Source: a virus
Virus record (IMG/VR): IMGVR_UViG_3300023082_000010
Span: 28,421 to 92,420 of that record
Length of the DNA: 64,000 nucleotides
Direction: 5' to 3' (one strand)
Under the pieces are notes generated by a model, which was not told where the DNA came from, did no database searches, and saw nothing but the letters and a program-made list of their open reading frames with translations. Position numbers and translations under genes: made by a program. The first letter of the stretch is position 1. Each line of letters opens with the position of its first letter. Positions 35,357-54,281 of this stretch are shown in pieces.

Positions 35357-35560
35357 TAAGTGATGGAATGGACTTAAAGAAATGTCTTCCAGAGCGGGAG
35401 AGGGCACTTTGGAAGACACAATACCAATAATAGGAGGAGAGAAACCACTATTGGCGAGGAGCACATACCATATGTTATCGGAGGATTATAATTGTGGTAT
35501 GTGTAGGGAATTAGCCGGGGAGGTAGGATAATACATTTTCAGTCCTAGCCTCCCCGTAGC
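35357..35560. ncRNA. Array of five adjacent hairpins; GGA-rich on +, CU-rich anti-SD loops on -
   Basis: Stems at 35357-76, 35383-418, 35424-54, 35462-503, 35516-56; 12 GGA triplets in ~170 nt; no ORF. Confidence 0.55.
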
Positions 35561-35879: not shown

Positions 35880-36243
35880 TGAATTAGTTCCTAGCGTCTG
35901 CTAGGCTACGATGCAGTTACGTTTGAGTGGTATTTTCTCAAATAGAAAGGACGCACACACATCTTGTCTTGCACCATCACAAATCATATCAAAGATTTTA
36001 GTAGGAGAGAGCTTTGACTGTTTCTTGTAAAGACGACTTTATCAGAACTCGACTGCTCTACTTGATAATGGAGAACCAGACATTATCTTTCAGGCTGAAC
36101 ATCCTCGCGGGTAGTTCGCATTCTGACTTTTTAAACCTCTTGTTCTCACACTACACCGACAAACATATGGAAATCGATGGTGTTGCTCCATACAGCCAAG
36201 AGGAATTCTTTTCAGCCCAAAAGCCAAGGGCTTTGCGTCTCCT

Positions 36244-36271
36244 ATTATACGGCATTTCTATCAGTTGTCAA
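36244..36271 (-). promoter_or_regulatory. Consensus sigma70 promoter driving the non-coding/tRNA block
   Basis: TTGACA-16-TATAAT. Confidence 0.75.
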
Positions 36272-39253: not shown

Positions 39254-39282
39254 CTACAGGCCACGGTTTATATAGGTTTGTA
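39254..39282. repeat. Imperfect palindrome copy C upstream of the polymerase-like gene
   Basis: CTACAGGCCACGG is the exact reverse complement of the right arm of copy A (384..396). Confidence 0.6.
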
Positions 39283-39343
39283 CCCCTTGCTACTCGGTAC
39301 TTTCTCTAAAGTAGACATTACTACCCTCCCAAAGATAAGACAC

Positions 39344-39456: not shown

Positions 39457-39498
39457 GACTAGACACAAACAGATATGCACATATGTGTGCGGGAGAGA

Positions 39499-39906
39499 AT
39501 GATGATTAAAGGACAAAGGAATCAGCTAGCTAACGTTGGAAATCAATTCCAGACTAAAGTGAAAAAGGTGTTATGTGTCTGCTCTGCTGGGATGCTCAGA
39601 AGTCCAACTCTGGCAAACGTACTTCATAAAGAGTATGGGTTCAATACTAGGGCTGTTGGTGCAGACAAAGAATTTGCACTGATCCTCATTTCACAAGCAT
39701 TGATCTGGTGGGCGGATGAAATTGTATTTGTAAATGGCTCAGCTTACTACAGTCTTGATCAAGAAGAGAAGGACGAAATTGATGATGTTGGTGTTGTCAC
39801 AACTCTTTTAGATATTCAGGATGATTTTGACTGGAATGAAAATGGTTTGAAAAGTCTTCTACTTCATGAGTACAATCGTGTCTGGAATATTAAGGAGGAA
39901 GAATGA
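39499..39906 (+). CDS. Low-molecular-weight protein-tyrosine-phosphatase-like protein
   Basis: KVLCVCSAGMLRS (C-x5-R-S P-loop), WADEIVF, LDIQDD. Confidence 0.75.
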   Translation: MMIKGQRNQLANVGNQFQTKVKKVLCVCSAGMLRSPTLANVLHKEYGFNTRAVGADKEFALILISQALIWWADEIVFVNGSAYYSLDQEEKDEIDDVGVVTTLLDIQDDFDWNENGLKSLLLHEYNRVWNIKEEE

Positions 39907-40109
39907 TGGCTAAATTTATTCCTGTCGTAGAAGGCTACCTTGCTGGCCGTAATTCATCCAGTCTTGAGCTACCAGAATGTCATCTTGACAAGCCAGCAGC
40001 TTTCAAACATGGTTGGTTAAATGGACGAGATGATAGAATCAAATGTCCACGAGACAAGGCTAGCGTATTGCGGGCAAGATATGAATTGATTGAGAGGAAC
40101 ACTAAATGA
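39903..40109 (+). CDS. Small protein, Rmf/CrpP-like motif
   Basis: EGYLAGR...P.C....AFKHGWLNG. Confidence 0.4.
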   Translation: MMAKFIPVVEGYLAGRNSSSLELPECHLDKPAAFKHGWLNGRDDRIKCPRDKASVLRARYELIERNTK

Positions 40110-40291
40110 AAGACCTATTCCTTGCATCAAGCAGCGTCACCAGAAACAGTAAGAACGAAGAAATTCTTAAACAAGAATGCCTATTAGCTTCCAAAGAAGG
40201 AAGATCATTTGAGATTCATGAAACCTATGACTCTACATTAGGTGCTTGGGTAAGTAATTACAAGATTTGGTATTTTGAGGTGAAGAAATGA
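40106..40291 (+). CDS. Hypothetical protein
   Basis: Coupled ORF with GAGG SD. Confidence 0.55.
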   Translation: MKDLFLASSSVTRNSKNEEILKQECLLASKEGRSFEIHETYDSTLGAWVSNYKIWYFEVKK

Positions 40292-40512
40292 AACAATTCT
40301 GGATCACATCCCGAACAATCCTAATCGTACTGAGCATACCTCTGTTACTGACAGGGTTGTCTGCTTGGGCTGTACCAATCTTGTGGGTGCAAGGATCTTC
40401 AGCAGCATTTGAGTTTGCAGGGTTTCTTGTTATATTGTGCATAGTTCTTTGGGGTGGTGTATGGTGGCTGTTGAATGGTTGGTATCAGGAAAGTAAGGGG
40501 ACTAAGAAATGA
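40288..40512 (+). CDS. Small membrane protein (2 TMD)
   Basis: Two hydrophobic segments; coupled ORF. Confidence 0.6.
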   Translation: MKQFWITSRTILIVLSIPLLLTGLSAWAVPILWVQGSSAAFEFAGFLVILCIVLWGGVWWLLNGWYQESKGTKK

Positions 40513-40904
40513 GAACCCTGAAAATTATGTCTGTTATTGTTCTATTCTCACTAGGTTGTTGGGTATGGAATTGGGCAGGAATACGTAATCATGAAGAAAT
40601 GCGTGATGCAGTAATGATTGACACACGATCAGATATGTCTTCGCACAAAGGAACAAAACACTTTAACACTGTAGGAATCTTTCGTGATAAGCTGACGGGT
40701 AAGGTGTTCGGAGATAGTATTAACGATTCACTGTACAGACAGTTTGAGCGTGATGGCAAACCAATTGAATGCCGTTGGCCTTACAGTATTGACAAAGTAG
40801 AACAGACATCTATTGGATTCTTTGCACTGCTGCTGGCATTCTTTCTATGGATAGGTACAGGCTGGTTGTTAGTGTACACTTGTTTTGATTGGAATGAGAA
40901 ATGA
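40509..40904 (+). CDS. Membrane protein (N- and C-terminal TMD)
   Basis: Hydrophobic ends flanking a soluble domain. Confidence 0.6.
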   Translation: MRTLKIMSVIVLFSLGCWVWNWAGIRNHEEMRDAVMIDTRSDMSSHKGTKHFNTVGIFRDKLTGKVFGDSINDSLYRQFERDGKPIECRWPYSIDKVEQTSIGFFALLLAFFLWIGTGWLLVYTCFDWNEK

Positions 40905-41061
40905 AAACCACACCCCTCATCTCCAACGGATGGTTAGCCTTTGTCCAAGCTGTCAAAGATCTGTATCCTGTCAAAGAGCTAGTCAACAAAGACTACAGCA
41001 AAATGATGGACTGGTATGTCGCTGGAAAATCTGCTGAGAATTATGTAAAGGAGAATGTGAA

Positions 41062-41250
41062 ATGACAACGGCGGAAAGTTTTAAATATAGACTACCTAAG
41101 TGTGGAAGGTGTGGTACACAGATTAAAGGCCCAACTGAATCTATATGTGACGTATGCCAAGAAAGTTTGTGGGTTACAGGGGTAGGAGTTTTTGGAGGAG
41201 GTGCTGGAGGCGGATCAGGTGACAAACCTATAGGTGAGGATAAGCAATGA
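41062..41250 (+). CDS. Small Zn-finger protein
   Basis: CGRCG...CDVC; AGGAGA SD. Confidence 0.5.
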   Translation: MTTAESFKYRLPKCGRCGTQIKGPTESICDVCQESLWVTGVGVFGGGAGGGSGDKPIGEDKQ

Positions 41251-41579
41251 ACGTACAACGATTTTCAAAAGAGATTATTAAGATTGGTGACACATTGGTC
41301 GCTTTATCTACAATCTATGCCATTACTCCTGTGTTTCTGTTGGGCGAGCGTGGCTATGGAGATATGTGCTACCAATTCTGTATTAGTACGTGCCTAGGAC
41401 AAGGTGGGAAGGTGAATATTTTGGGATCGACTATACCTTACTGGCAAGCAGACAGCAAAGAATTCACTTGGGGTAAGGAAGATGAGCATCCAATTTACGC
41501 AGATAAGAAAATTGAGCTGCTTGTAGTAAGAGATGAGGTGGTTGAAATTTGGGATAAATATTTGGAGGAGAATAAATGA
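41247..41579 (+). CDS. Hypothetical protein
   Basis: Coupled ORF with SD. Confidence 0.6.
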   Translation: MNVQRFSKEIIKIGDTLVALSTIYAITPVFLLGERGYGDMCYQFCISTCLGQGGKVNILGSTIPYWQADSKEFTWGKEDEHPIYADKKIELLVVRDEVVEIWDKYLEENK

Positions 41580-41785
41580 AGTGGACACAAGAACTTCCAA
41601 AGATATCCGGCTACTATTGGTTTGCTATGAAAAGTGGAGGACAGACTAGCTGTGTGTTTGTTGATCTCAGTTATGTTTTATATGGTGTAGAAATTTGTAT
41701 TGACCTCTCTAAGCGAATATACTGTGTAGAAGAAGATGGTTATTTCTTCTCATCAGGGTCTGTTCAGCCGTTGGAGTGGACATGA
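41576..41785 (+). CDS. Hypothetical phage protein (WT.ELP...GYYW type)
   Basis: GGAGGAG SD; common phage N-terminal motif. Confidence 0.6.
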   Translation: MKWTQELPKISGYYWFAMKSGGQTSCVFVDLSYVLYGVEICIDLSKRIYCVEEDGYFFSSGSVQPLEWT

Positions 41786-42084
41786 AAATCTGTTGTGACA
41801 CAGGAAAAGAAATCAAGACAGATATGGATAGGCTTGGGTGTGGGCATGATAGGTGTACCGGAGCTAAAGAAATGATTGAAGAACCTATTGGTGTTTTATG
41901 TGGTAAGATTCCTGTTGTAGAGAAGCACATCCCTTACTACCTTCAAGACTCATCTCATTCCCACAAATATCATTGGGAAGCATTTGAAGATAGAAATGGG
42001 AATAAGGCTGATTTGAAAGTGGTGGGGTGGGTGACGAAGAAAGGGAAGGATAGGGAGGCTGTTATTGTGGTTAAGTGGAGGTGA
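41776..42084 (+). CDS. Hypothetical protein
   Basis: Coupled ORF. Confidence 0.55.
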   Translation: MDMKICCDTGKEIKTDMDRLGCGHDRCTGAKEMIEEPIGVLCGKIPVVEKHIPYYLQDSSHSHKYHWEAFEDRNGNKADLKVVGWVTKKGKDREAVIVVKWR

Positions 42085-42396
42085 TTTACCCAGCCTTAAA
42101 TACCCACCCTCGGATACCCGCATTTTGCCGATCAAAAGTCTTGTATTGTGGGGGAATACCAGTGTAGAATCAACGAACGCAAAGGGGTCTGTATACCCAT
42201 AGCCACTTTTTGGACTAGGGTTAAAATTACGTAGATATAGTCAGGAGAAAATGATGGGAACTGATAAAATTGAAATTGAAGCAAAACTTTTAGTAAAGAT
42301 TCTTTCTGCACTAAATTGGCATCTTGAACCTGACTCACCAGACTGGACTGAAGAAGCCTTTTTGGAAGGTGAGAAAGTACTTGAAGGTACAGACGA

Positions 42397-42747
42397 ATGA
42401 GCCTACCTAATTTCACCCCGGAAGAACGCCTTATTGCTCAGCAGAAAGCACAGGAGTCAAGAGAAGCTAAGAGGTTGTTTGCTGAGGCTAACTTGAGCCT
42501 TTCATATTCGGACGAACCCTACTGGCGTGAAACCGCTAGTTTGTTGAAGGTGCGTTTGCCACAGAGATATGATGTTGGTCCTAAAGGTATTAAGAAAGTG
42601 GCTAAGGCATTGAAAGTGGATATTAAAGACTACGTTGTAAGCACAGGGTTTGCATCTTTGAAGGATTTGTGCGAAGCTAATCCTAAATGGACATCATTAG
42701 CCCTGTCGGGATTGCTAATCGAGTGGTATGTGGGAGAGAAGAAATGA
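42397..42747 (+). CDS. Hypothetical protein
   Basis: Coupled ORF. Confidence 0.6.
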   Translation: MSLPNFTPEERLIAQQKAQESREAKRLFAEANLSLSYSDEPYWRETASLLKVRLPQRYDVGPKGIKKVAKALKVDIKDYVVSTGFASLKDLCEANPKWTSLALSGLLIEWYVGEKK

Positions 42748-43229
42748 AACAAATGACACCCTTGGTAGAAACAAAGCACTACGCTGTTTGTCCTTGTTGT
42801 GACAAACGCACAAGTAGTATTGACCACTTACTGAATACTGAAATTTCTACTTCTTGGTATTGTGATAGCTGTGGTGAGCGTTATGATATCACTTTCAATA
42901 GTAAGGGTGAGGTGTTCACACAAGCAACCGGAGAACGTGTAAACAAAAACATTGTTTTACTTAAAAATGGTAATGTTGGTCTAATTGTTGAGGGTCTGTA
43001 TTTTTCTGATGCAGAAAGCAACCAAGAATATTATTACAATGAACATACCTGCCCAACAAATTATATGAAAAAGGTATTGGCTGTTATTGATTTGGAGTAT
43101 AATGATTCAGACCCTCATGGAATCTTTGAGTATGTGGCGGCGCTAGATTGGGACAAAGATATTGAAGACTGTAATTATGACTATTCTAATATCATGACTT
43201 TGTTTGAGGAGAAGCAAAATGCTTTCTAA
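42744..43229 (+). CDS. Zn-binding hypothetical protein
   Basis: CPCC, WYCDSCG, YYYNEHTCPTN; GGGAGA SD before ATG 42744. Confidence 0.6.
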   Translation: MKQMTPLVETKHYAVCPCCDKRTSSIDHLLNTEISTSWYCDSCGERYDITFNSKGEVFTQATGERVNKNIVLLKNGNVGLIVEGLYFSDAESNQEYYYNEHTCPTNYMKKVLAVIDLEYNDSDPHGIFEYVAALDWDKDIEDCNYDYSNIMTLFEEKQNAF

Positions 43230-43386
43230 AGTAGAAATGACTAAGATTATATTGCTTCTTGATTCTCTAGGAACAAAAGAGTCCAGTAATGGGTATGGAT
43301 TGCCAACATGGGATGAAAAATGGATGGCTTTGGCACGTGAAGAGATTTATGAATTATTGAATGACGGTGAGGAGCAGAAGAAATGA
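43219..43386 (+). CDS. Hypothetical protein, LD-x10-YGLP family (paralog of 63496..63732)
   Basis: Same motif spacing as 63496..63732. Confidence 0.55.
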   Translation: MLSKVEMTKIILLLDSLGTKESSNGYGLPTWDEKWMALAREEIYELLNDGEEQKK

Positions 43387-43658
43387 AATACCAGTTTGAA
43401 GACTTTTATGGTAGCGGTAGGCTAGTTGCTGAAGATAAATCTTACATCACAATCCCAACTAATGGAATTCTGGTCAAGGTTGGTAATATGACAGGTAAAC
43501 TTTACTCCCTTGTAGATGCTTCCACTCACAACGGTGGGCACGGGATGGGGCAAATGTCATCTTGTCAAGGAGTGATTAGTCCTGCTGATATGAGTTTAGG
43601 GGTGTTGAAACCTTCTTGGGTTGGTCCATTTGATATTGAGGTGCTTGATAATGAGTAA
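43383..43658 (+). CDS. Hypothetical protein
   Basis: Coupled ORF with GAGGAG SD. Confidence 0.55.
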   Translation: MKYQFEDFYGSGRLVAEDKSYITIPTNGILVKVGNMTGKLYSLVDASTHNGGHGMGQMSSCQGVISPADMSLGVLKPSWVGPFDIEVLDNE

Positions 43659-43944
43659 CCTACTACGCAATTCACTACTAGACATGTACAAAAATGATTT
43701 CTATGTCCTAGAACTCCTTGCACAGTGCAATCTGGACACCCTTGAGAACAACTATCTTCGTGAGCTTTATGCAAGGATGCCTAAAGAAGATGTGCTGAAG
43801 GCTCAAGAGATTATTAATAGTGATATTGTAAAGCAATATGATGTAGCAGCAACTGGAGCAGTGCTTGCTTTGACGATGGAGATTAGTAAAGTGCTGGACT
43901 TGGTGCTTTGTATTAACGAAAATGGTTATAAGGGGATTAATTAA
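43651..43944 (+). CDS. Hypothetical protein
   Basis: GAGGT SD before ATG 43651. Confidence 0.55.
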   Translation: MSNLLRNSLLDMYKNDFYVLELLAQCNLDTLENNYLRELYARMPKEDVLKAQEIINSDIVKQYDVAATGAVLALTMEISKVLDLVLCINENGYKGIN

Positions 43945-44276
43945 TGTATATTGAATGGCACTTCGGTGAAGACTTTGGTTTAGAGATTAATGAACACATG
44001 CAATTTAGTTTGTATGATAAGGATGGCAAAGCTACACACTATCAAGCAACTAATGTGCAGACAAATAATAGTGGTATGATCGGTGGTGGTGGTGGGATTA
44101 GTCCCAGCTATACTGGCGGTGTAACTCTTGCTAAAAAGAGTGTTCAGGCACAGAGGATTCAACAACTTAAAGTAGAAACACCAGAAGAGAAAGTTGCTAA
44201 AGAAGCTGTCGAGAAAGCTGAAGAAAGTCTTAAAGCGGCTAAGGACACTTTGAAGGCTGTAAAGGGGATTAATTAA
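43944..44276 (+). CDS. Hypothetical protein with C-terminal coiled coil
   Basis: Coupled ORF. Confidence 0.55.
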   Translation: MYIEWHFGEDFGLEINEHMQFSLYDKDGKATHYQATNVQTNNSGMIGGGGGISPSYTGGVTLAKKSVQAQRIQQLKVETPEEKVAKEAVEKAEESLKAAKDTLKAVKGIN

Positions 44277-44279
44277 ACA

Positions 44280-44308
44280 TTGACAGTGGTGAGAAGTTTT
44301 GGTAGTAT
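44280..44308 (+). promoter_or_regulatory. sigma70-like promoter upstream of phoH
   Basis: TTGACA-17-TAGTAT. Confidence 0.5.
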
Positions 44309-44352
44309 GATTGATGTTGGGCTAATTTATTAATTGAGAAAGAGGTGGTATC

Positions 44353-45159
44353 TTGGGAGCGCGCGAAAGGTCTTTCATCGTAAATGTTGATGGTCAGGAT
44401 ATTCCTGTAAATCGTAAATCCACACGGAAAACACGTAATGGTGGCCTTCCGCAAGAGCAAAAGGAGAAATTTGTACAAGAAGCTGCTGCAAAGATTGAAT
44501 ATATTAAGAAATTTAAACCAACACCTTCACAAGAACAGGCTATTGAGATTGCACGAACTCACACATTGAGCTGGATTGTGGGTGTAAGCGGTAGTGGTAA
44601 GAGTACATGCGTACTTTGGGACTATTGCCAAGAATATCTTCGGGATAACACCAAAAAGATTTATGTTATCAAGGGTGCTACTGAAGTAAGTATGGACAAG
44701 ATTGGATTTCTTCCTAATGGTCTAGATGAGAAGATGTCTGCACATATGGTGGCTAACCGTAAGATTCTTGAAGATTTCTTGGGTGCTGAAAAGGTAGCAG
44801 CGGACTTGAACAAGCGAATCTTCTTGTTGCCGCCAAATTATTTGCTCGGCCAAACGCTAGAGGGACTCATCCTCATTGAGGAGTCACAGCAACTACAGCC
44901 TAATGTTCTGAAATTGATTCTTGAACGAACAGGCTCCAAAGGAAGTCGTGTCTGTGTGGTCGGTGATGCTAGCCAACTCTATACAGATGCAAAAGAATCT
45001 AAGTTGCGTAATGGGCTGACAGATGGTCTTAAACGTTTCTTTAAAGAAGATATGACGTCTAAGTTTTCAGATGTTGGTTATTTTGAATTTAATATTGAAG
45101 ATGTTCAAAGGTCAGAAATTGTGAAGACTATTTTGCGGGCATACTCTGATTATCAATAG
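44353..45159 (+). CDS. phoH: PhoH-family ATPase
   Basis: GVSGSGKS, IGFLPNGLDEKM, LIEESQ, GDASQ, DVQRSEIVK. Confidence 0.9.
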   Translation: MGARERSFIVNVDGQDIPVNRKSTRKTRNGGLPQEQKEKFVQEAAAKIEYIKKFKPTPSQEQAIEIARTHTLSWIVGVSGSGKSTCVLWDYCQEYLRDNTKKIYVIKGATEVSMDKIGFLPNGLDEKMSAHMVANRKILEDFLGAEKVAADLNKRIFLLPPNYLLGQTLEGLILIEESQQLQPNVLKLILERTGSKGSRVCVVGDASQLYTDAKESKLRNGLTDGLKRFFKEDMTSKFSDVGYFEFNIEDVQRSEIVKTILRAYSDYQ

Positions 45160-45167
45160 GAGAGAAT

Positions 45168-45743
45168 ATGGCAGGTTTAGTTCATGGTTGGGGTGTAAAT
45201 GACCTTATAGGAAAGTATGACTGTAATTTTAGCTTGTGTCCTATATACAAAACTTGGAAAAAGATGGTTGGTCGTTGTTATGACCCTAAATACCATGAAA
45301 CACGGCCAACTTATATATTGTGCACAGTTACAGAGGAATGGAAACATTTTTCAAATTTTAAAGCTTGGATGGAAACGAAGAACTATACTGGCATGAGCCT
45401 AGATAAGGACATTTTGTCAGCAGGTAACAAAGAGTATAATTCTTCAACTTGCACTTTTGTACCTAAAGCAATTAACTCTTTCTTTACGTTTGTTAAAACT
45501 AAAGATGGTAATCTTCCTTACGGAGTTAGCTGGTGCGTATCTGAAAACTGTTATAAAGCTTATTGTGCCAAGCTAGACGGTAGAAATAAAACTTTGGGAC
45601 GGTTTAAATCACCAGAAATGGCGGGAGAGGTTTACCGGAAATTTAAAAACTCTCTAGCAGCAAAATTAGCTAAAGAGTATGAAGGTGTTATCGAAGATAA
45701 AGTTGTAAAGGCTTTAGTCAATTTTGATGTATCAAATTACTAA
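45168..45743 (+). CDS. HNH-type (DKD-variant) homing endonuclease with AP2-like tail
   Basis: WKKMVGRCY, VTEEWKHFSNFKAW, LDKDILSAGNKEY..TCTFVP..IN, LGRFKSPEMA. Confidence 0.75.
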   Translation: MAGLVHGWGVNDLIGKYDCNFSLCPIYKTWKKMVGRCYDPKYHETRPTYILCTVTEEWKHFSNFKAWMETKNYTGMSLDKDILSAGNKEYNSSTCTFVPKAINSFFTFVKTKDGNLPYGVSWCVSENCYKAYCAKLDGRNKTLGRFKSPEMAGEVYRKFKNSLAAKLAKEYEGVIEDKVVKALVNFDVSNY

Positions 45744-45755
45744 GAGGAATATACT

Positions 45756-46511
45756 ATGAAGCACGAAGAATTGATGCTGTTGCCACAAAAGTCGCGTATT
45801 TCCTCTAGTCATAATGGTGGTATGACTCACGTTATTCGGATTCACGAGGATATTTCTGAACCAAGTAATTGGAGCGATGAGCTGGACCTAATCAACGGAG
45901 CCTCAGAATCTGATACCATCGTATTGGACGTTTGCTCGCCGGGTGGATATCTTGATACGGCAATGTTGTTTCACCGGAGCTTGAATAACTGTGCTGCACA
46001 TACAATCGCAATCATTGGGCCTGAGTGTGCAAGTGCTGCTTCGATCATCAGTCTTTCGGCTCGGGAGTGGATATTGGATGACACTTCTAGCTTAATGATT
46101 CACACAAGTTCCTATAGTTTGGGAGGAAAAGACACAGATATCCTAGAACATGCAAACTTCTCTCGTGGGCAGCTGAAACGCTTGTACGAGAAGGTGTATT
46201 CGGGTTTTCTCAGTTCTGACGACCTCAGCGATGTAATTAAAGGGACTCCGTTTTACTTTAGTGCTGAACAGATTGCAGATCGATTGGATGCTTTGACTGA
46301 GTATCGTAATAACCAACCTTGCACAAATCCTGATTGTCAAGAGTGTGGTATTGTTGAAGACTTCGAAGACGAAGAACCTCACTTGACAATTGACGAAATC
46401 GTAGAACAAGCCGTGGCACGAGCACTAATCGCCCACGATAAGCGATTAGAAGCTGCTAAACGTAAATCAGCCAGTGCTGAGAAAAAGAAACTTGTAAAAG
46501 ATTCAGAATAA
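45756..46511 (+). CDS. ClpP-like serine protease
   Basis: CSPGG, CASAAS (catalytic Ser), SLMIH (catalytic His). Confidence 0.85.
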   Translation: MKHEELMLLPQKSRISSSHNGGMTHVIRIHEDISEPSNWSDELDLINGASESDTIVLDVCSPGGYLDTAMLFHRSLNNCAAHTIAIIGPECASAASIISLSAREWILDDTSSLMIHTSSYSLGGKDTDILEHANFSRGQLKRLYEKVYSGFLSSDDLSDVIKGTPFYFSAEQIADRLDALTEYRNNQPCTNPDCQECGIVEDFEDEEPHLTIDEIVEQAVARALIAHDKRLEAAKRKSASAEKKKLVKDSE

Positions 46512-46553
46512 TATTACACTGCCACGGACGGCATTTGCTTTAGGAGAGAATAT

Positions 46554-46739
46554 ATGAAATACCTAGCTATGGTCGCAGTAGGTTTAGTTATTGCAGGTTG
46601 TGTTGAAGCTGATTCGCCAGTGAAGTTTAAAACAGAAGATATTGGGTATCCTTTCTACAGTCTCAAACGAACAGTTGATGAAGATTACAAGGTGGTTTGT
46701 TATACACACACTAACATGGTTTCTTGTGTAAAACTCTGA
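46554..46739 (+). CDS. Small lipoprotein
   Basis: Lipobox IAGC; VVCY...SCVKL. Confidence 0.65.
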   Translation: MKYLAMVAVGLVIAGCVEADSPVKFKTEDIGYPFYSLKRTVDEDYKVVCYTHTNMVSCVKL

Positions 46740-46747
46740 GGTGTAAT

Positions 46748-47041
46748 ATGGCAGCTAAAGAAAAAGAGTTGAGAGTAACAACAGTTTCTTACGAAGATTT
46801 CACAGCCTACGACTACATTTGCCAAGCTGCATTTTACTTCAAAGATGCCCTAGGTCAAATTCATATGTTACATAGCAGTAAACGTGATGAGTGTCAAGCT
46901 TGGGTTGATGAGAACTACCCACCGAAGGGTAAATATAAAGTTATTGCAAGTCGGGAACAAAAAACTAAAAGTAAGCTTGAAAGTGGAGGACTCTCTTGTT
47001 ATGGTACGGCCACGAGAAAGGGACAGCGTTCCCCGAACTAA
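46748..47041 (+). CDS. Conserved hypothetical phage protein
   Basis: GAGGTG SD before ATG 46748. Confidence 0.55.
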   Translation: MAAKEKELRVTTVSYEDFTAYDYICQAAFYFKDALGQIHMLHSSKRDECQAWVDENYPPKGKYKVIASREQKTKSKLESGGLSCYGTATRKGQRSPN

Positions 47042-47204
47042 ATTAAACAAATAGGAGAGAACAAATGTTAGTATGGGAATTTTCAGATATGCTCGATATT
47101 TCAACAGAAGATTCATATCAGATTCAGGAGATGTTGACAGCACAAACTTGCCGTGATGATTATGATCAAGATTATTCTGATTACTTTAGTGTAGGTATGG
47201 AAGA

Positions 47205-47684
47205 ATGAAGGAGAAAGAGCTTCACTTCTACATGCAAACAGCAGAGAACGCTGCACAGATGAGCCATGCTGTACGTAAGAAGGTGGGTGCATGTGTAATC
47301 ACTAAGAATCGTGGTATTTATATTGGATACAATGGACGATTGGAGGGGCAGGATAATACTTGTGAAGAAACGGTCTGCACCACCATCCACGGAACGATGC
47401 ATCAAGGTAGGGTACAAATAGAAAAAGGGCTTGATTGTAAGTCAGTCACAAGAAAAGATGTGGTTCATGGGGAGATGAACGCATTGGCTAAGATGCTTAA
47501 AGAGGGCGTATCAGCAGAAGGTGCTTCACTGGTCGTTACCTTAGCACCGTGTTCTAGCTGCGCTATTATGATTGCTTCAAGTGGAATCAAGGAGGTTGTG
47601 TACAAAGAGAAGTATCGAGATGAGGATGGATTGAAAATATTAATCGACTCAGGTGTTATAGTTAAACAATACAATCAACAATGA
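47205..47684 (+). CDS. dCMP deaminase
   Basis: KVGAC, GYNG, HGEMNA, PCSSC zinc motif. Confidence 0.9.
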   Translation: MKEKELHFYMQTAENAAQMSHAVRKKVGACVITKNRGIYIGYNGRLEGQDNTCEETVCTTIHGTMHQGRVQIEKGLDCKSVTRKDVVHGEMNALAKMLKEGVSAEGASLVVTLAPCSSCAIMIASSGIKEVVYKEKYRDEDGLKILIDSGVIVKQYNQQ

Positions 47685-47694
47685 TCTATACAAC

Positions 47695-47742
47695 GGCTGC
47701 TTAGTGACTTATAATTTAGGTCACAAGGCGGCCTTTTTTTTT
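47695..47742 (+). terminator. Rho-independent terminator
   Basis: GGCTGC-TTAGTGAC...GGTCACAA-GGCGGCC followed by a long T-run. Confidence 0.7.
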
Positions 47743-47767
47743 AAGCTAAAATTGGGAGAAATAAAAA

Positions 47768-48010
47768 GTGGATAAGATTATAGGAGATGTAGCTGTTTTA
47801 GATAATGGGACTGCTTGGAGATTGCCTAGGACTAAAGACGAACTTTCTTGGCGTTGTACTTGGTCTCCAGATTCAATTACACATCAAGATTTACTTCGGA
47901 TTGCTAGCACACTACAATCTTATCAGTACATGGTTGAGTGTATGACTCAAAAAGAACGTAATGATGTTTGTGAAAGACTTAAAAACTTGATGAAAGGAGA
48001 GACAAAATGA
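47768..48010 (+). CDS. Hypothetical protein
   Basis: GGGAGA SD, GTG start. Confidence 0.55.
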   Translation: MDKIIGDVAVLDNGTAWRLPRTKDELSWRCTWSPDSITHQDLLRIASTLQSYQYMVECMTQKERNDVCERLKNLMKGETK

Positions 48011-48201
48011 CTTACCTAATTATCTGGCTTGTATCTGGAATCATTGGCAGCATTATGCTAGCCCTCGGCGGATCTGTAGACGGAGAAAAGATTGACTCTG
48101 TAGATGTTCTCTTCCTAGGCTTCCTTTCTCTTGGTGGAATTGGAACATTCCTCCTAGGAATCCCAATGCTGTCTGTATGGGTGAGAAGTAAATTCAAATG
48201 A
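48007..48201 (+). CDS. Small membrane protein
   Basis: Two hydrophobic segments. Confidence 0.6.
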   Translation: MTYLIIWLVSGIIGSIMLALGGSVDGEKIDSVDVLFLGFLSLGGIGTFLLGIPMLSVWVRSKFK

Positions 48202-48362
48202 CTCGTGATCAATTGAACAAACAATTAGTACTTTTACAGAAAGATGCACTGAAAGTAGAAAAGCGGATGTCTTCTATTGCAAAGAAGCTTGATATCCCTG
48301 ATAATGAAGATATCAAGAAGATTGTTAATGAAATACAGCTGCTATTGCAGCACATTGATTAG

Positions 48363-48629
48363 GTGGGAATAGCCATGCAAACTGAATATTCTGCTGATTT
48401 TCAACTGACATCCCTTAAAGACATTCTTTTTCAATTGCAAATCAGCGCATCAAAAGTGTCAGATGAGGAATTTAAACGTGTAGGCTGCACAGGGTTGATG
48501 AATTCAATTCAGAACTGTAAAAAGCTAATAAAACTAGCTGAACAGCTTACGATTTATGAACAGATTAGTATGTACAGTGACCAAGTGTGTGGATACTCGG
48601 ATTCACTTGGCATTCACAACGAGGTGTAA
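48363..48629 (+). CDS. Hypothetical protein
   Basis: ORF in operon. Confidence 0.5.
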   Translation: MGIAMQTEYSADFQLTSLKDILFQLQISASKVSDEEFKRVGCTGLMNSIQNCKKLIKLAEQLTIYEQISMYSDQVCGYSDSLGIHNEV

Positions 48630-48630
48630 G

Positions 48631-48825
48631 ATGGTTAAAGATAAAACACTACCTCTTCTCAATTCAGAAAAGAAAGAGCTTCTTGAGAGGATCAAGGCTG
48701 AGAAGAATCGAGCTGACCAAGTATTTGGCTGCGTAATGAGGAAAGTGAATGGTGTTGTGATTCGTGCTGACTACCTCACAACTGAACAGAAAGAAAAACT
48801 GATAGCACAACTCTTGGAGAATTAG
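48631..48825 (+). CDS. Hypothetical protein
   Basis: GAGGTG SD before ATG 48631. Confidence 0.55.
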   Translation: MVKDKTLPLLNSEKKELLERIKAEKNRADQVFGCVMRKVNGVVIRADYLTTEQKEKLIAQLLEN

Positions 48826-49160
48826 AAATGTTCTTTTTATTTATAATCTGTATGACCGTGTTTACAATGTATGTTGATGCAATCTGTTGCATGTCAGTGA
48901 AACACAGGTATAACTGGAAAACTTCAATGTTGTCTGCTTTGTTCTGGCCTGTAACATTGATTATTGTCATCATTGCAGTAGTCAAAGAAACAAAGGAGTA
49001 TTGAAATGACCATAGTATTTCTCCTATACGAAGTAGCCACTGTTGGCAGAGTGGAGCACACATTGATTGATATCTTCTCTGACTGGAAAGAAGCTGAAGA
49101 CGCTCGTGTTGGAATGAACAGTCAGCGTGAACATGGTTTTATTGAATATGTTCTACAAGA

Positions 49161-49502
49161 GTGGTATGTAAGATGACCACAAACAATGAATTAACTGTGA
49201 TCTCCTACCCAATTGAGGACGATGAAGCAGCTATTAGAGTATTATCCAAGCGTCTGAATATGTTCCTTAAACGCCCCTTAATGTACACAAATGAAGAGAA
49301 TGTAGCAGCTATTGTGGAAGGGTTTGAGTATGTGTTACAATCAGTCCTGAAACTACCAATGGATCGGGATTACCATAAATATTGGTGTGCCGTAAACGGC
49401 TGTAGATGTCCAAAGCTGGATAATCAAGACAGGTGGGGTACACCTTACAGGGTGATCAGTGCTGATTGTCCTTATCATAATATTAAAGGAGAAAGTAAAT
49501 GA
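49161..49502 (+). CDS. Conserved phage protein with C-terminal CxCPKxDN...CPxH motif
   Basis: GCRCPKLDNQDRWGTPYRVISADCPYH. Confidence 0.6.
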   Translation: MVCKMTTNNELTVISYPIEDDEAAIRVLSKRLNMFLKRPLMYTNEENVAAIVEGFEYVLQSVLKLPMDRDYHKYWCAVNGCRCPKLDNQDRWGTPYRVISADCPYHNIKGESK

Positions 49503-49714
49503 CTTACACAATTCAGTATGATGGCAGTACAGACACATATAAAATGAATGACTGTACAGAGAATTGGATTGGATGCCATTTGATGCAGATTGCTAAAGAG
49601 AATGATATTGACCCAAACTCTTTTATCAGTGAGAGCCACGGTCTGCATATACTTCGTGGTCAAGAGCTTGACATTGATATTCTAGATGAAGATGGCTCAC
49701 CCCTTATTTGGTAA
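49499..49714 (+). CDS. Hypothetical acidic protein
   Basis: AGGAGA SD. Confidence 0.55.
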   Translation: MTYTIQYDGSTDTYKMNDCTENWIGCHLMQIAKENDIDPNSFISESHGLHILRGQELDIDILDEDGSPLIW

Positions 49715-49799
49715 AAGTAGCCTGTAGATGGTACTTTTGGTAAAGTAGCCCCTGAAGGCTACAGTGTACTAGAAAGTCAGATTATAGGAGAAAGTATAA

Positions 49800-50030
49800 A
49801 TGAATTACGAATTAGAATTTGAGAAAGCGGTGTATAATCTGCTCAATGTTTGGCAGCAATACAACTCTTGGGGAAGTGATAAAGAACACTTCTCGCATGC
49901 GTGCATGCGTGCTGGAGAGAACGCTTCGGAATTCTTGGAAAGACATGGCTATGGTACGGACACAGGATGGGGATTTGAGCCCAATAATAAAGCCATTGAA
50001 CTAATGAAGCGAGAGGAGCTAGATGAATGA
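49800..50030 (+). CDS. Hypothetical protein
   Basis: AGGAGA SD. Confidence 0.55.
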   Translation: MNYELEFEKAVYNLLNVWQQYNSWGSDKEHFSHACMRAGENASEFLERHGYGTDTGWGFEPNNKAIELMKREELDE

Positions 50031-50366
50031 GTACAGAACCTAAATACACGCCTCCCACATTTGAGGAAACAATCATTCGTGACTTCCTCTCTTTTGTAGC
50101 TAAAGAACATTGTGCAGTGTTGGTGAATATTCAGACAGAGGGGAAATATAAGTTTCTTAATATGGATGGGATCGTTAAAGAATATGTGCAAGGGGGAGAG
50201 AAATGAGTGACAATAAAGATATAAACTTATGGGTAATTCTTAATGACCTCTATGCAGCTAATCAACAATTAGAAAAAGTTGAGGGTATGCTAAGGACTAA
50301 ACAAAATCTTAGGTATTTGATTGATGATCTTGAACAAGAACTTAAATCAATTAAGGAGAAAGAATT

Positions 50367-50846
50367 GTGATTATTGACTGGAGTAAATCTAAAGATGCAT
50401 CTCAATACTACATTGAGCACATCACCAATGATTTGGCGTATAATAGTGATCGTGATGGATTTTATAAATTGACAGACTACGCTTTTTATAGTGAAAAGGG
50501 AAGTTGGATAAAAGGTAAAGATCATGTGTTTAATAATCTAGGTGTTTTATATAATATATATTCCAAACCTAAAGAAACAAAGCCTCTAGATTATCACACA
50601 AGGATGTGTCCGTACTCAAATATCGAAACTAAAAAAGATAATCTAGTTTCGATGGGAATGCGAACAGAAAAATTAGAACTTACCCCTCTCGCCCGATTTT
50701 TAGAAGTACATTTGTCTGGGGATATCTACGAGATAGATAAAAGATACGTTGAAAAAGGTTTCTATTTTAAACTTGATGGTGAAGTGTTTGAGTATTCAGC
50801 TGTAGATCTTCGTAATATCTTTCGTAAACATGAGGAAAACAAATAA
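50367..50846 (+). CDS. Hypothetical protein
   Basis: AAGGAG SD. Confidence 0.55.
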   Translation: MIIDWSKSKDASQYYIEHITNDLAYNSDRDGFYKLTDYAFYSEKGSWIKGKDHVFNNLGVLYNIYSKPKETKPLDYHTRMCPYSNIETKKDNLVSMGMRTEKLELTPLARFLEVHLSGDIYEIDKRYVEKGFYFKLDGEVFEYSAVDLRNIFRKHEENK

Positions 50847-51037
50847 TGGAACTGCGTACAGAAGTTAAATGCTTCACTGTAAAAATGATGTGTGATGAAT
50901 GTTTCTCAGGCGAGATGCTTTCCACAGGTTTGGTGCTGACAAGCTATCCTGCCTTGTACAAACATAAGTGTACATTGTGTAGTCATAAAGGTAACTATTA
51001 TAGTGTTTATCCTAAAGTGGAGTATTCAGAATGTTGA
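50846..51037 (+). CDS. Zn-ribbon protein
   Basis: CDEC..GEM...YP..YKHKCTLC. Confidence 0.6.
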   Translation: MELRTEVKCFTVKMMCDECFSGEMLSTGLVLTSYPALYKHKCTLCSHKGNYYSVYPKVEYSEC

Positions 51038-51264
51038 AAACACGTCGTATCAAAGGAGAGCTTGCTTTTTACGAATCAACTACTGGGGTCACTCTGAACA
51101 GCATTAAGAGTGTTGCATTTACCGGATACCCCGAAATCATTGTTACTGTTGTGTATAAAGATGGAGTGCCACACGTATTTCTGCCCTTCAGAGATGGCAA
51201 TCCCCTAGTTTCATTGCAGACAGCTATTGAACGAATGGATTTGATTATTACGAAGGTGGCTTGA
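51031..51264 (+). CDS. Hypothetical protein
   Basis: GGAG SD, coupled. Confidence 0.5.
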   Translation: MLKTRRIKGELAFYESTTGVTLNSIKSVAFTGYPEIIVTVVYKDGVPHVFLPFRDGNPLVSLQTAIERMDLIITKVA

Positions 51265-51265
51265 T

Positions 51266-51490
51266 ATGTGGGAGCTAATTCACATCGCAGGATGTGGTGG
51301 AGTGTGCTACAGACGAAGTAGTCAGCCAGAGCTGCATACAAAGCTTGATGAGAAAGATAGTTTTAATCTTGATGGAACTCCTGTAGAGAGAAATCAAGCT
51401 GTTATATGTCAGTCTTGTGGTGAGGTTCTTAAAGTTTATAATCCTTACAATGAGGTTCATCCTAGTAAATGGAGACATGTTGATGACTAG
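51266..51490 (+). CDS. Zn-binding hypothetical protein
   Basis: H..GCG...CQSCG. Confidence 0.5.
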   Translation: MWELIHIAGCGGVCYRRSSQPELHTKLDEKDSFNLDGTPVERNQAVICQSCGEVLKVYNPYNEVHPSKWRHVDD

Positions 51491-51704
51491 AGAACAGTTC
51501 ATTAAAAAGTTCTTTAATGTAGAGGGATTTAATGAATCCTCAGAAATGTGGAAAGGAATCTCTAGAGCTTCTTCTATTTTCGGTATTGAATATGCTTTAA
51601 TAGGGGCTGTGTATGACCTTCAACAGCAGATTACACAGAAAGATGAGTTCATTGATTATCTAGATCAGAGATTGATTAATCTGGAACAGGAGGTTTATAA
51701 ATGA
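51417..51704 (+). CDS. Hypothetical protein (true start probably near 51480)
   Basis: C-terminal coiled coil; coupled. Confidence 0.5.
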   Translation: MVRFLKFIILTMRFILVNGDMLMTREQFIKKFFNVEGFNESSEMWKGISRASSIFGIEYALIGAVYDLQQQITQKDEFIDYLDQRLINLEQEVYK

Positions 51705-51982
51705 TTTATCCTAAACACATCTATCGTGATTTTGAGATTATAGAAAAAGAGATTTGTGGAGAGAGGCACTTTGCTATTGTGGAGACCAAAACCTTTCTGT
51801 TCTTTTGGGAACGTAAGTGCCATGTCTATTTAGGTAGTTTTTCCTTCAACGGGTGGGCTGGTTATGAATCCTCAAAAGGTTGGGGTGATATCTGGCACAA
51901 ATATAGCTACACATGTGAGTCTGCTATCAAAGCAATGAACGAGCAAAGCGAATATAGATTTAAAAGGAAAGTGTTAAATTGA
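51701..51982 (+). CDS. Hypothetical protein
   Basis: AGGAGG SD. Confidence 0.55.
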   Translation: MIYPKHIYRDFEIIEKEICGERHFAIVETKTFLFFWERKCHVYLGSFSFNGWAGYESSKGWGDIWHKYSYTCESAIKAMNEQSEYRFKRKVLN

Positions 51983-52197
51983 GCACACGAGTTTGTGAAT
52001 TCTGCAAAGACTGGACACCAGAATACCTAGAAGAATTCTACACAAAAGACTTAATTACTGGAGGCATCTTTGATGCCGCATTTCCAGTGTGTGGGGCGTG
52101 TGAGGGGACTAGGGAATTGGATAGTAGGGCTTGTTTCTGTCACGCTTGGGATGAGACAGAATGTGGGTGTAATGCTGATTGGAGTGATGAGGGATGA
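51979..52197 (+). CDS. Cys-rich hypothetical protein
   Basis: Multiple CxxC/CxC motifs. Confidence 0.5.
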   Translation: MSTRVCEFCKDWTPEYLEEFYTKDLITGGIFDAAFPVCGACEGTRELDSRACFCHAWDETECGCNADWSDEG

Positions 52198-52784
52198 ATA
52201 ATCTAAGTGTAAATGAACACAAGAGTGAAAGTTATGCACCAAGGACATATCACAACGCTTCCCAAGGTTGTACATTAGCTGTAGCTGTGGACTTCAACAC
52301 AGCAGGAGAACGTCTTACACATAAAGCTGCCAAGGATAAGATTGTGCAGATTGCTTGGGGAACAGACGTTATTACAACAGCACGTAAACTATATTCATTG
52401 CTTAAGAAATATGATTGTCATGTTGTGAATGTTGCAGGTAATGGAATCTATACACTAGTGAAGAAAGGGGTAGACCAGAAGACAGCTAATAAATTTGTTT
52501 ATGATGTACTAAAGCTTGTGAATACACATTGGCCTATTACAAAGGTTGTCAGTGGAGGTCAGACAGGGATGGATATGGCAGGATTGGTTACTGGACTTGC
52601 TTTAGGAATTGAAACAGAAGCTATGTATCCCAAAGGATTTCTGATGCGATTAGTTGATGGGAAAGATACTTACATGTGGAAGCTAGATATGCAACAAGCT
52701 GAGATGGAAATTTGTTCTAAATGGGCCTACCGTATTTATAGGAGTGTTCAGAAGGTGCTTGATAGAGGAGATGAATTGGTGTGA
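52194..52784 (+). CDS. SLOG-superfamily protein (circularly permuted YpsA-like)
   Basis: YAPRT.HNA, VNVAGNG, VVSGGQTGMDMAGL, PKGF. Confidence 0.7.
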   Translation: MNNLSVNEHKSESYAPRTYHNASQGCTLAVAVDFNTAGERLTHKAAKDKIVQIAWGTDVITTARKLYSLLKKYDCHVVNVAGNGIYTLVKKGVDQKTANKFVYDVLKLVNTHWPITKVVSGGQTGMDMAGLVTGLALGIETEAMYPKGFLMRLVDGKDTYMWKLDMQQAEMEICSKWAYRIYRSVQKVLDRGDELV

Positions 52785-52981
52785 CAGATATTAAAGAGCA
52801 GGCTGAAAGCCTTAGAAAACAAGGACTGACACCACAAGAACAAATTCTACAAAACTGGGCGAATGAGTTTGTAGATATTTATGGTAAAGAGCCTTCTCAA
52901 GATACAATAAATTATTGGAAGCTTCAGATAAATGCACTACACTGGACAGACTATGACACTGAAGAGGATTTAGATGACTAA
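52781..52981 (+). CDS. Hypothetical protein
   Basis: Coupled ORF. Confidence 0.5.
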   Translation: MTDIKEQAESLRKQGLTPQEQILQNWANEFVDIYGKEPSQDTINYWKLQINALHWTDYDTEEDLDD

Positions 52982-54281
52982 AGTAATCGTGTACGATGAA
53001 CTTCCCGGAACGGGTAAGTCATGGAGAATGATTGACAAGATTAATAACTCTGACAAAGATCGGAGATTTATTGTTGTTACTCCTTTTCTAGCAGAGTGTC
53101 ACAGGTACGCTGGCACAGTACTTGACAAAGATAGTGGAGATAAACAACTCCCTAGTAAAGATGACCATGGGAATATAATCTATGATGGTACTGGCTGTAG
53201 TGCGTCTGGTCGTAGATTTGAACACCCTATCTCTGGATACAAAACAAAGGTAGAGCATATTGCAAAGCTTGTCCATGAGGGGAAGGATATAGTAACAACC
53301 CATGCCGCGCTTAAGCTCTTTACACCCGAGACAGTTAAGGATGTAAAGGATGCGGGTTACACTCTTGTAATTGATGAGGAGCTTGAATGTATCAGACCAC
53401 ATCCTTGCAAGATGCACAGAAGGAAGATGCTACTAGGCTCTAATGTTATTTATGAGGATGAGTTAGGACTTCTACGTTGGAACGAAGACTACCCAATTGA
53501 TGACATCAAAGACCTAGATAGCTCGGGCTTTAGCTGGGACATGCAGATCAAAGCTTTGTGTGATAATGGTAGTCTTGTACTGATTGCAGATGAGAAAGGT
53601 AATCGTGATTTATTCATGTGGGAATATCCTATTGAGTTTATCAAAGCATTTGACAAGGTTGAAGTGCTAACCTACTTGTTTAAAGGATCTATGTTTGAGA
53701 AATATCTAGACTTCTACGGTATTCCGCATGAAACAAAGTTAGGCATCCAAATGCAATCTAACATCTTTGATTTGATTAACATCATTGACAATCCAAAGAT
53801 GAATCGTATTGGTGATCGAGAAACTGCCTTCTCAGTAAGTGACCAGAAGAGGTATGCAAAAGACAGTGCTACTGCTGTTACAGTGAAAGCCAATCTCGGT
53901 AACTACTTTAGGAACAGTACGTATGGTAAGTCAAACACAGAGGACAGGTTGTGGACTTGTTTAGGAGAAGCCTTTAGCACATTCAAAGGTGCTGGATATA
54001 CTAAGTGTCACATTGCCCATAATACTAAAGCTGTGAATGATTATATGGAAACAAGTCAGCTAGCCTATATCTACAACTCTTACATCCATCCCGAACCTTA
54101 CAAATATCTGCTAGATAGAGGTACAGAGTTTGCACCAGATCAGAATAGATATCCACTGAGCGAGCTTTTACAATGGATCTATAGAAGTAGAGTTAGGAAA
54201 GACGAACCTATAAACCTGTATATTCCCAGCAGTCGTATGAGAGGGTTACTCCAAGACTGGATGAGTGGAAATATGACTTAG
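52974..54281 (+). CDS. SF2 helicase-like protein (DEAD/DEAH-like N-terminus)
   Basis: Walker A PGTGKS, motif Ia VVTPFLAE, TTHA, Walker B LVIDEE, LTYLF, C-terminal SELLQWIYRSRVR. Confidence 0.75.
   Translation: MTKVIVYDELPGTGKSWRMIDKINNSDKDRRFIVVTPFLAECHRYAGTVLDKDSGDKQLPSKDDHGNIIYDGTGCSASGRRFEHPISGYKTKVEHIAKLVHEGKDIVTTHAALKLFTPETVKDVKDAGYTLVIDEELECIRPHPCKMHRRKMLLGSNVIYEDELGLLRWNEDYPIDDIKDLDSSGFSWDMQIKALCDNGSLVLIADEKGNRDLFMWEYPIEFIKAFDKVEVLTYLFKGSMFEKYLDFYGIPHETKLGIQMQSNIFDLINIIDNPKMNRIGDRETAFSVSDQKRYAKDSATAVTVKANLGNYFRNSTYGKSNTEDRLWTCLGEAFSTFKGAGYTKCHIAHNTKAVNDYMETSQLAYIYNSYIHPEPYKYLLDRGTEFAPDQNRYPLSELLQWIYRSRVRKDEPINLYIPSSRMRGLLQDWMSGNMT

Follow-up and report, generated by a model that had tools for sequence, protein, structure and literature searches.

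A conserved multi-hairpin RNA with pyrimidine-rich loops at the end of the tRNA operon in a clade of uncultured phages

The IMG/VR record IMGVR_UViG_3300023082_000010 is a 92,420-bp sequence, estimated to be complete, of a myovirus-like phage whose large terminase shares 54% identity with its counterpart in Pseudomonas phage phiPMW and 51.5% with the one in vB_PsaM_M1 (Ounavirinae). The window analyzed here covers 64,000 nt of this record (bases 28421-92420), and all positions are given in the numbering of the window. An earlier note had placed an array of hairpins at 35357-35560 and regarded it as a candidate RNA for translational control. The minus strand of the window does encode a non-coding RNA that is stable and highly structured, and this RNA (35506->35318, 189 nt) is a divergent member of a conserved, uncatalogued family in a clade of uncultured phages. 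Based on the sequence of its loops, we tentatively suggest that it may damp translation initiation by pairing with ribosome-binding sites (RBSs) of the phage.

The RNA is part of a transcription unit on the minus strand. Small early genes occupy 39163->36304, with a sigma-70-type promoter at 36539->36511, and are followed by a perfect sigma-70 consensus promoter (TTGACA-16-TATAAT, 36271->36244, 12/12 matches) that reads toward a tRNA gene and the RNA. Some 360 nt free of open reading frames separate this promoter from the tRNA-Met gene (anticodon CAU, 35879->35803; detected by ARAGORN and, with 63.4 bits, by the Rfam tRNA model), which lies 296 nt upstream of the conserved RNA and on the same strand. 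A gene for a 134-amino-acid protein (35289->34885; start set by alignment with relatives) begins 28 nt downstream of the RNA, has AAAGGUAUUUAAUAAUG as its RBS, in which GGAG is absent, and opens a leftward block of about 35 kb with tail-fibre, terminase, portal, capsid and tail genes, all on the minus strand. No intrinsic terminator was found in the window between the tRNA promoter and these late genes. The 134-amino-acid protein has a basic N-terminus with an invariant F..GE.SNRN motif, a helical middle and an acidic tail, and no identity was found for it in Pfam, PHROG or PDB; the name small terminase (terS) could be given to it by position only. In the leader upstream of the tRNA (35880-36271), the pyrimidine-loop hairpin that the earlier note had pointed out near 35989-36017 is present at 36018->35988, with the loop CUCUCUCCUACUAAAAU, and is matched by neither of the two covariance models described below.

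A 241-nt stretch around the array folds far more stably than its shuffled versions on both strands (z = -4.65 on the plus and -6.50 on the minus strand; 0/200 shuffles as stable), confirming that the array is real and beyond chance. Four strong hairpins are found, at 35382-35419, 35423-35455, 35462-35503 and 35516-35556, rather than the five that had been counted; the supposed fifth is the 5' strand of a three-way junction that we refer to as P4. The core hairpins lie within the boundaries first proposed, whereas the conserved element extends beyond their lower end, so that P4 (35318-35378) falls only partly inside them, and the hairpin at 35516-35556 is outside the family.

Read 5' to 3' on the minus strand, the RNA consists of (i) P0', a hairpin at 35462-35503 with the stem CACAUACC.../...GGUAUGUG and a large loop that contains AAUCCUCCGAU at 35477-35487, (ii) a single-stranded linker CUCCUC at 35456-35461, which exposes an additional pyrimidine motif, (iii) P2 at 35423-35455, with an 11-bp stem and the loop UUUCUCUCCUC at 35434-35444, (iv) P3 at 35382-35419, with 14 pairs and the loop CCCUCUCC at 35397-35404, and (v) P4, with an AU-rich closing helix (UUUAAG.CCAUUC / GAAUGG.CUUUAAA), a weak P4a and P4b (ACAG...CUGU). 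The minus-strand loops thus read CCCUCUCC(CGC), UUUCUCUCCUC and AAUCCUCCGAU, exactly as reported earlier. In the upper stem of P3 both sides are altered relative to the relative L026 (L-numbers denote loci or contigs of relatives and WIN the window copy) with pairing retained, and P4 of the window shows compensatory changes in a four-sequence alignment of its subtype (WIN/L002/L022/L026). The GC-rich hairpin of 16 pairs at 35516-35556, directly upstream of the conserved RNA, is specific to the window and absent from the family alignment, and no U-tract lies beside it on either strand.

Relatives were collected by means of the 134-amino-acid protein, a 452-amino-acid early protein and DNA pattern searches. 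In nearly all relatives found via the 134-amino-acid protein, the corresponding site is occupied by two to four tandem hairpins, with stems unrelated in sequence and with loops such as CCUCUCCU and UUUCUCUCCUC; the 452-amino-acid protein and the DNA patterns led to further copies. As the stems have no sequence in common, MAFFT followed by RNAalifold detected no structure in the raw sequences, and we therefore built a covariance model, R1, from a single member (L017:548-722) and its predicted P0-P1-P2-P3 structure. R1 gave exactly one full-length match on the sense strand in each of 25 loci, 24 of them distinct. Among the five complete related genomes searched, it gave one match per genome in four; the copy of the fifth was lost at a first-look filter, yet it scores in the R1 search of loci. 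In the resulting alignment all 40 of the 40 modelled pairs show compensatory changes, and conservation of the stems, which the earlier note had proposed as a check, is thereby established. Paired cells amount to 97.4%, a fraction that is inflated by fitting of the alignment to the model, compared with 35-42% after sliding the partners by 1-3 columns. We regard the structure as secure because of these slid controls and because most positions display three or four types of pair.

The architecture that emerges is a P0 hairpin, two or three hairpins with pyrimidine loops and then P4. A conserved stretch after P3 (UUUCUAAAUAAUCUUG or UUUCUUAAG...), at first seen as a tail, is the 5' strand of the 12-17-bp AU-rich helix that closes P4, from which two small hairpins emerge, P4a (loop YYUU) and P4b (loop URRU). 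A pseudoknot between the P0 loop and this 3' tail was considered and dropped, both because cognate duplexes are no better than non-cognate ones (-3.55 vs -3.33 kcal/mol) and because the tail belongs to the P4 helix as its 5' strand. With R2, another model seeded from one sequence, P4 was recovered in 11 loci (E <= 1e-5); in the P4 alignment 98.3% of the cells are paired, 12 of the 26 pairs are compensatory and the U.G pairs are invariant. Other subgroups, including the window, have the same junction with different helix sequences. With P4 added to the hairpin array, the full length of the RNA comes to about 190-260 nt. In several relatives (L004, L007, L008 and L016), P4 is followed by 150-350 nt that start with a conserved UAUUUCUCAUGUGUUUUG and include a tRNA-like sequence; in L004 (3883-3965) this sequence reaches 26.4 bits with the Rfam tRNA model, which is below threshold. 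The RNA may have tRNA-like elements on both sides in these loci.

The copy in the window is a variant within this family. With filters off, R1 matches the 64 kb best on the minus strand at 35364-35506 (19.8 bits, E 0.003; next match 12.2 bits), aligning P0', P2 and P3 to P0, P2 and P3 of the model. The score is weak because the model stems from one distant member. By BLAST, with 70% identity along some 600 nt, the region is orthologous to the copy in L002, which is itself a significant R1 match (26 bits, E 2e-4). In the canonical form, P0 has the loop AAGAAUCAAUUCUAGAAA and is followed by three CU hairpins, and an ACUUAA junction is present; the window copy departs from it and forms with L002 a subtype with a different P0 hairpin, with just two subsequent CU hairpins and without ACUUAA. 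P0' is found in L002 as well, and some canonical members also have a CU motif in their P0 loop. The closest relative, L026, whose 452-amino-acid protein is 96% identical, has kept the canonical P0. What the window copy shares with the family are two or more tandem hairpins with UCUCC or CUCC in the loops, P4 directly 3' of them and the position on the tRNA strand at the 3' end of the tRNA cluster, upstream of the late block.

The family appears to have escaped description. No family in Rfam 15 matches this RNA in the window or in 14 relatives, and literature searches found no description of it. The exact P4 helix occurs in nine metagenome contigs, and a search of GTDB genomes with the P4 pattern gave no match. 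The 50,697 records of cultured phages contain neither similar DNA nor a homologue of the 134-amino-acid protein, and the RNA is absent from the cultured relatives phiPMW (L053) and vB_PsaM_M1 (L055).

Which strand is transcribed bears on two rival explanations. The segment at 35357-35560 contains 12 GGA triplets, as stated in the earlier note, which is the maximum of any 204-nt stretch in the 64 kb (mean 2.6, sd 1.8), and the loops of a plus-strand RNA would have the sequence AGGAGAGG. One of the two hypotheses in that note was accordingly a plus-strand decoy that presents GGA loops to CsrA/RsmA. Several lines of evidence contradict it: (i) in the paired columns of the structure-guided alignment G.U pairs outnumber A.C pairs 64 to 6 (46 to 5 in a first alignment; on automatically picked hairpins the ratio is only 26 to 17, the structure-guided alignment being far more skewed), and these G.U pairs, like the invariant U.G pairs of P4, would be mismatches on the plus strand, (ii) P4 scores 50-106 bits on the sense strand and at most 32 bits on the mirror strand, and (iii) all significant R1 matches share their strand with the neighbouring tRNAs, with consensus sigma-70 promoters and with the late genes. 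Among 16 loci, 12 have upstream promoters in the sense direction that match the consensus at 10 or more of 12 positions, three of them perfectly, and only three antisense promoter candidates were found, all weak. Moreover, the CsrB, RsmY and RsmZ families of Rfam give no match. The strand evidence therefore rules out the plus-strand decoy, to which we assign next to no probability.

Alternatively, the array could be an element of the DNA itself near the packaging genes, i.e. a pac or cos site, an origin or a cruciform, as the repeated 8-bp motif with its spacing of about 40 bp just upstream of the 134-amino-acid gene might suggest. However, selection acts on the complementarity of flanks that are themselves not conserved, and it tolerates G.T and not A.C, a signature that is single-stranded and strand-specific and thus unlike that of a DNA site. 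In addition, in the one relative with direct terminal repeats the element is about 20 kb from the contig end. We consider a DNA-level element very improbable.

The RNA starts 0-7 nt past the 3' end of a tRNA in L003, L004, L012, L022 and L025, three or four tRNAs precede it in L024 and L025, and it lies just upstream of the late structural and packaging genes. The RNA is thus the terminal element of a phage tRNA transcription unit that is driven by host-type sigma-70 promoters and is probably released by tRNA processing.

The same position could be taken to mean that the element acts in cis as a leader of the late operon, e.g. as an RNase III-type processing site provided by the 12-17-bp P4 helix, as an antitermination element of the put, EAR or nut type, or as a barrier between tRNA and late transcription. 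The element is single-copy and always directly upstream of genes on the same strand, usually at the head of the structural block, and the missing intrinsic terminator in the window would fit this explanation, as would the situation in phiPMW, which has a Rho-independent terminator and a TTGACA-17-TAATAT promoter at the syntenic spot between the last tRNA and the first late gene (L053:14540-14760). In vB_PsaM_M1 a gap of just 48 nt separates the last tRNA from the following gene (L055:39885-39934). P4a of one subgroup (L017:722-740, L008, L016, L024, L007, L027), which reads UGUUCUUUAACAA(U)AAUG, resembles the boxA of the E. coli rrn operons (UGCUCUUUAACAA / UGCUCUUUAACAAUUUAUCAG). We rejected the corresponding reading of P4a as a boxA for NusB/NusE; the resemblance is probably due to chance because P4a is a covarying hairpin and differs in sequence in the other subgroups. 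Against a leader function, the RNA stays with the tRNAs where it is parted from the 134-amino-acid gene (L003 and L013), and such a function leaves unexplained why three or four loops carry the same UCUCCU. A cis-acting leader is, in our opinion, distinctly unlikely.

This loop motif is shared across the family. Among 71 loops, CUCC is present in 69, UCUCC in 64, CUCCU in 63 and CUCUCC in 53; the canonical anti-Shine-Dalgarno core CCUCC is present in only 15 and GGA, on the sense strand, in none. Short loops are 89% pyrimidine, and the loops range in length from 8 to over 20 nt. The motif recurs in the linker between P0 and P1 (UUUCUCC or UUCUCCU), to which CUCCUC in the window corresponds, and in some P0 loops. 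Across the 24 relatives the UCUCCU loop motif is kept while the stems change completely, which speaks for an RNA that acts by pairing with RBSs.

To relate the loops to RBSs, genes were called crudely in five complete genomes. The commonest 7-mers in their RBSs (AGGAGAA, AAGGAGA, TAAGGAG, GGAGAAA, GGAGAGA and AGGAGAG) complement the loop motif. Perfect complementarity of at least 7 nt between the RBS region and a loop of the same phage is found for 158 genes, compared with 64.8 +/- 15.4 when the loops are shuffled with their composition preserved (158 reached by 0/300 shuffles), and complementarity of at least 8 nt for 71 genes, compared with 17.1 +/- 6.9. A generic 16S tail (GAUCACCUCCUUA) matches 81 genes over at least 7 nt and 9 genes over at least 8 nt, and it matched fewer genes even though the choice of start codons favoured it.

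Early RBSs include a AGGAGAGA type and late RBSs a UAGGUAA type. RBSs that match a loop over at least 7 nt make up 6.8% in the late block and 19.8% elsewhere, GGAG is present in 30% of the late RBSs and 47% of the others in the five RNA-bearing genomes, and the first late gene has a AUAGGUAA-like RBS without GGAG. In the window, an extended RBS, (A/G)GGAGAGAA, recurs among the rightward early/middle genes of the plus strand (39502-54281), at 39502, 42744, 45168, 46554, 47065, 48007 and 50203, and the structural genes mostly have AAGGA or GAGG. A non-coding block of the divergent early control region at about 39255-39330 (CUACAGGCCACGGUUUAUA..GGUUUGU ... CUACUCGGUACUUUCUC) is conserved across relatives (L019-L026, upstream of the gene for the 452-amino-acid protein). 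Between this block and the rightward promoter lies a C-rich, G-poor stretch, and the region could be a regulatory or origin element.

The earlier note had named two targets in this region. Both complementarities exist, loop 1 matching GCGGGAGAG before the ATG at 39502 and loop 2 matching AGGAGGAGAG before the TTG at 39163, but they do not hold up as conserved pairings: in relatives both the first rightward gene and the RBSs differ, as in L026, where that gene is another one, its RBS is of the UAGGUGA type and the P3 loop is different too. Loops and cognate RBSs were to covary, and neither the pairing of the unusual P3 loop of the window with 39489 nor that of loop 2 with 39167 is kept in the relatives. 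Thus, of the hypothesis of a multi-loop antisense RNA, the minus strand stands on the grounds of G.U pairs, promoters and tRNAs, the anti-Shine-Dalgarno mechanism is the best-supported inference, and the named targets fall away.

Combining the conservation of the loops with the RBS statistics, we suggest that the loops pair with phage RBSs and so damp translation initiation. We consider this the best-supported reading, with a likelihood that in our judgment comes near to even and does not quite reach it. According to this model, the RNA would be excised from its precursor by tRNA-processing enzymes and would expose UCUCCU/CUCUCC as a redundant single-stranded motif three or four times, in hairpin loops and in one linker. 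The exposed motifs would pair with AGGAGA(G/A)-type RBSs of early and middle phage mRNAs, and possibly of host mRNAs, in competition with the 16S rRNA tail, and would thereby lower translation initiation. Late genes would be spared, as their RBSs are mostly without the motif, and the P0 and P4 domains would serve as scaffold or processing modules. In an extended version, which we regard as possible but on the whole improbable, the RNA would be an abundant and stable, tRNA-like molecule mimicking the tail of 16S rRNA, made from the consensus promoter on replicating phage genomes, that acts as a stoichiometric Shine-Dalgarno sponge, masking strong AGGAGA-type RBSs of the host and of early phage genes and handing ribosomes to late mRNAs with weak Shine-Dalgarno sequences. 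This version would be the RNA counterpart of T4 RegB.

Several observations weigh against RBS pairing. First, the complementarity between CU-rich loops and purine-rich RBSs is partly inherent to any motif of Shine-Dalgarno type. Second, the long matches specific to the window, at 39489 and 39167, are those not conserved in relatives. Third, vB_PsaM_M1, which is without the RNA, has the same contrast in GGAG content (36% in late and 60% in early genes), and phiPMW, equally without the RNA, has no early/late contrast. The depletion in late RBSs is therefore not specific and cannot be credited to the RNA because M1 shares it, and we discarded it as functional evidence. Fourth, the RNA is without a terminator tail of the Hfq type. 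Finally, the conserved sequence of the P0 loop and the P4 junction are left unexplained by a simple antisense model.

This last point is among those that favour a further explanation, namely that the pyrimidine loops bind a protein with a preference for single-stranded RNA rich in C and U, such as ribosomal protein S1, Rho through its primary YC-binding sites, cold-shock proteins, Hfq or a phage protein, which the RNA would titrate or recruit. The conserved P0 loop and P4 junction would be needless in a simple antisense RNA, several G-free CU motifs on a conserved scaffold suit a protein ligand, and the RNA lies inside a long untranslated tRNA/ncRNA transcript; such a transcript would be exposed to Rho. 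However, the loops and their flanks vary widely, which is unusual for a specific protein site, and the range in loop length is more in keeping with a seed for base pairing than with a fixed loop for protein binding. Moreover, no candidate partner gene is consistently adjacent, the 134-amino-acid protein belongs to no recognisable RNA-binding family and is apart from the RNA in L003 and L013, and protein binding does not predict that real loops match RBSs better than shuffled loops, i.e. that the match depends on the order of the bases. We therefore look upon a protein sponge as unlikely, while giving it some weight.

The strongest external support for RBS pairing is, by analogy, the precedent of the cuckoo/alpha-r14 small RNAs of Alphaproteobacteria (CcsR1-4, i.e. 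RSs0680a-d, and NfeR1/SmelC397), in which two to four hairpins with variable stems carry the anti-Shine-Dalgarno loop motif CCUCCUCCC and in which, in the case of NfeR1, three redundant motifs silence mRNAs by occlusion of the RBS (PMC4615179, PMC10746234). The phage RNA resembles them in having adjacent, freely varying stems and one conserved pyrimidine motif of anti-Shine-Dalgarno type in the loops. It differs from them in that (i) its motif is UCUCCU/CUCUCC and not CCUCCUCCC, (ii) it is encoded by a phage in a tRNA operon, whereas the cuckoo/alpha-r14 RNAs are chromosomal and stress-induced, and (iii) it has an additional conserved P0 and a three-way junction, whereas the cuckoo RNAs are without a multiloop. 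The Rfam ar14 model gives no match at E values up to 10 in the window or up to 1-5 in 14 relatives.

Among phage RNAs, the c4 antisense RNA of P1/P7 and the CI RNA of P4 are structured, are processed from a longer transcript and have loops that pair with sites including RBSs. Their loops are unique sequences directed at one or two cognate sites of the immunity operon of a temperate phage; by contrast, all loops of the RNA described here carry one generic anti-RBS motif, and the phages that encode it look virulent. The Rfam C4 family has no match in the window or in 14 relatives, and the loops are not matched to cognate sites as in C4, given that the long matches in the window are not conserved. 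In multi-hairpin design with a repeated short loop motif the RNA is similar to CsrB, RsmY and RsmZ, but these present GGA on the transcribed strand, where the 71 loops have none.

In its genomic context, and in this respect alone, the RNA can be compared with RNAC and RNAD, two small stable non-coding RNAs of the T4 tRNA cluster whose function is still unknown (PMC9697503). Both share with it the position in a phage tRNA cluster. We know of no report of anti-Shine-Dalgarno loops for either of them. The T4 endoribonuclease RegB inactivates early mRNAs via the GGAG of the Shine-Dalgarno sequence (PMC1702504). RegB is a functional analogy only, as it is a protein nuclease that cleaves the mRNA, whereas the phage RNA would mask the site.

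The RNA would be new as a multi-hairpin RNA of anti-Shine-Dalgarno type that is borne by phages, linked to a tRNA operon and equipped with extra domains. To our knowledge, translation control by phages is known almost entirely from proteins, e.g. RegA and RegB of T4, and few phage non-coding RNAs have an assigned function. The strong covariation leaves little doubt that the RNA is real, and it has a clear seed motif, UCUCCU, and a fixed place in the tRNA operon. If RBS masking is true, the RNA would represent a new viral route to host shut-off or to the switch from early to late gene expression, and a compact and modular design for a repressor with multiple seeds. If the loops instead bind a protein such as Rho or S1, the RNA would be more novel still.

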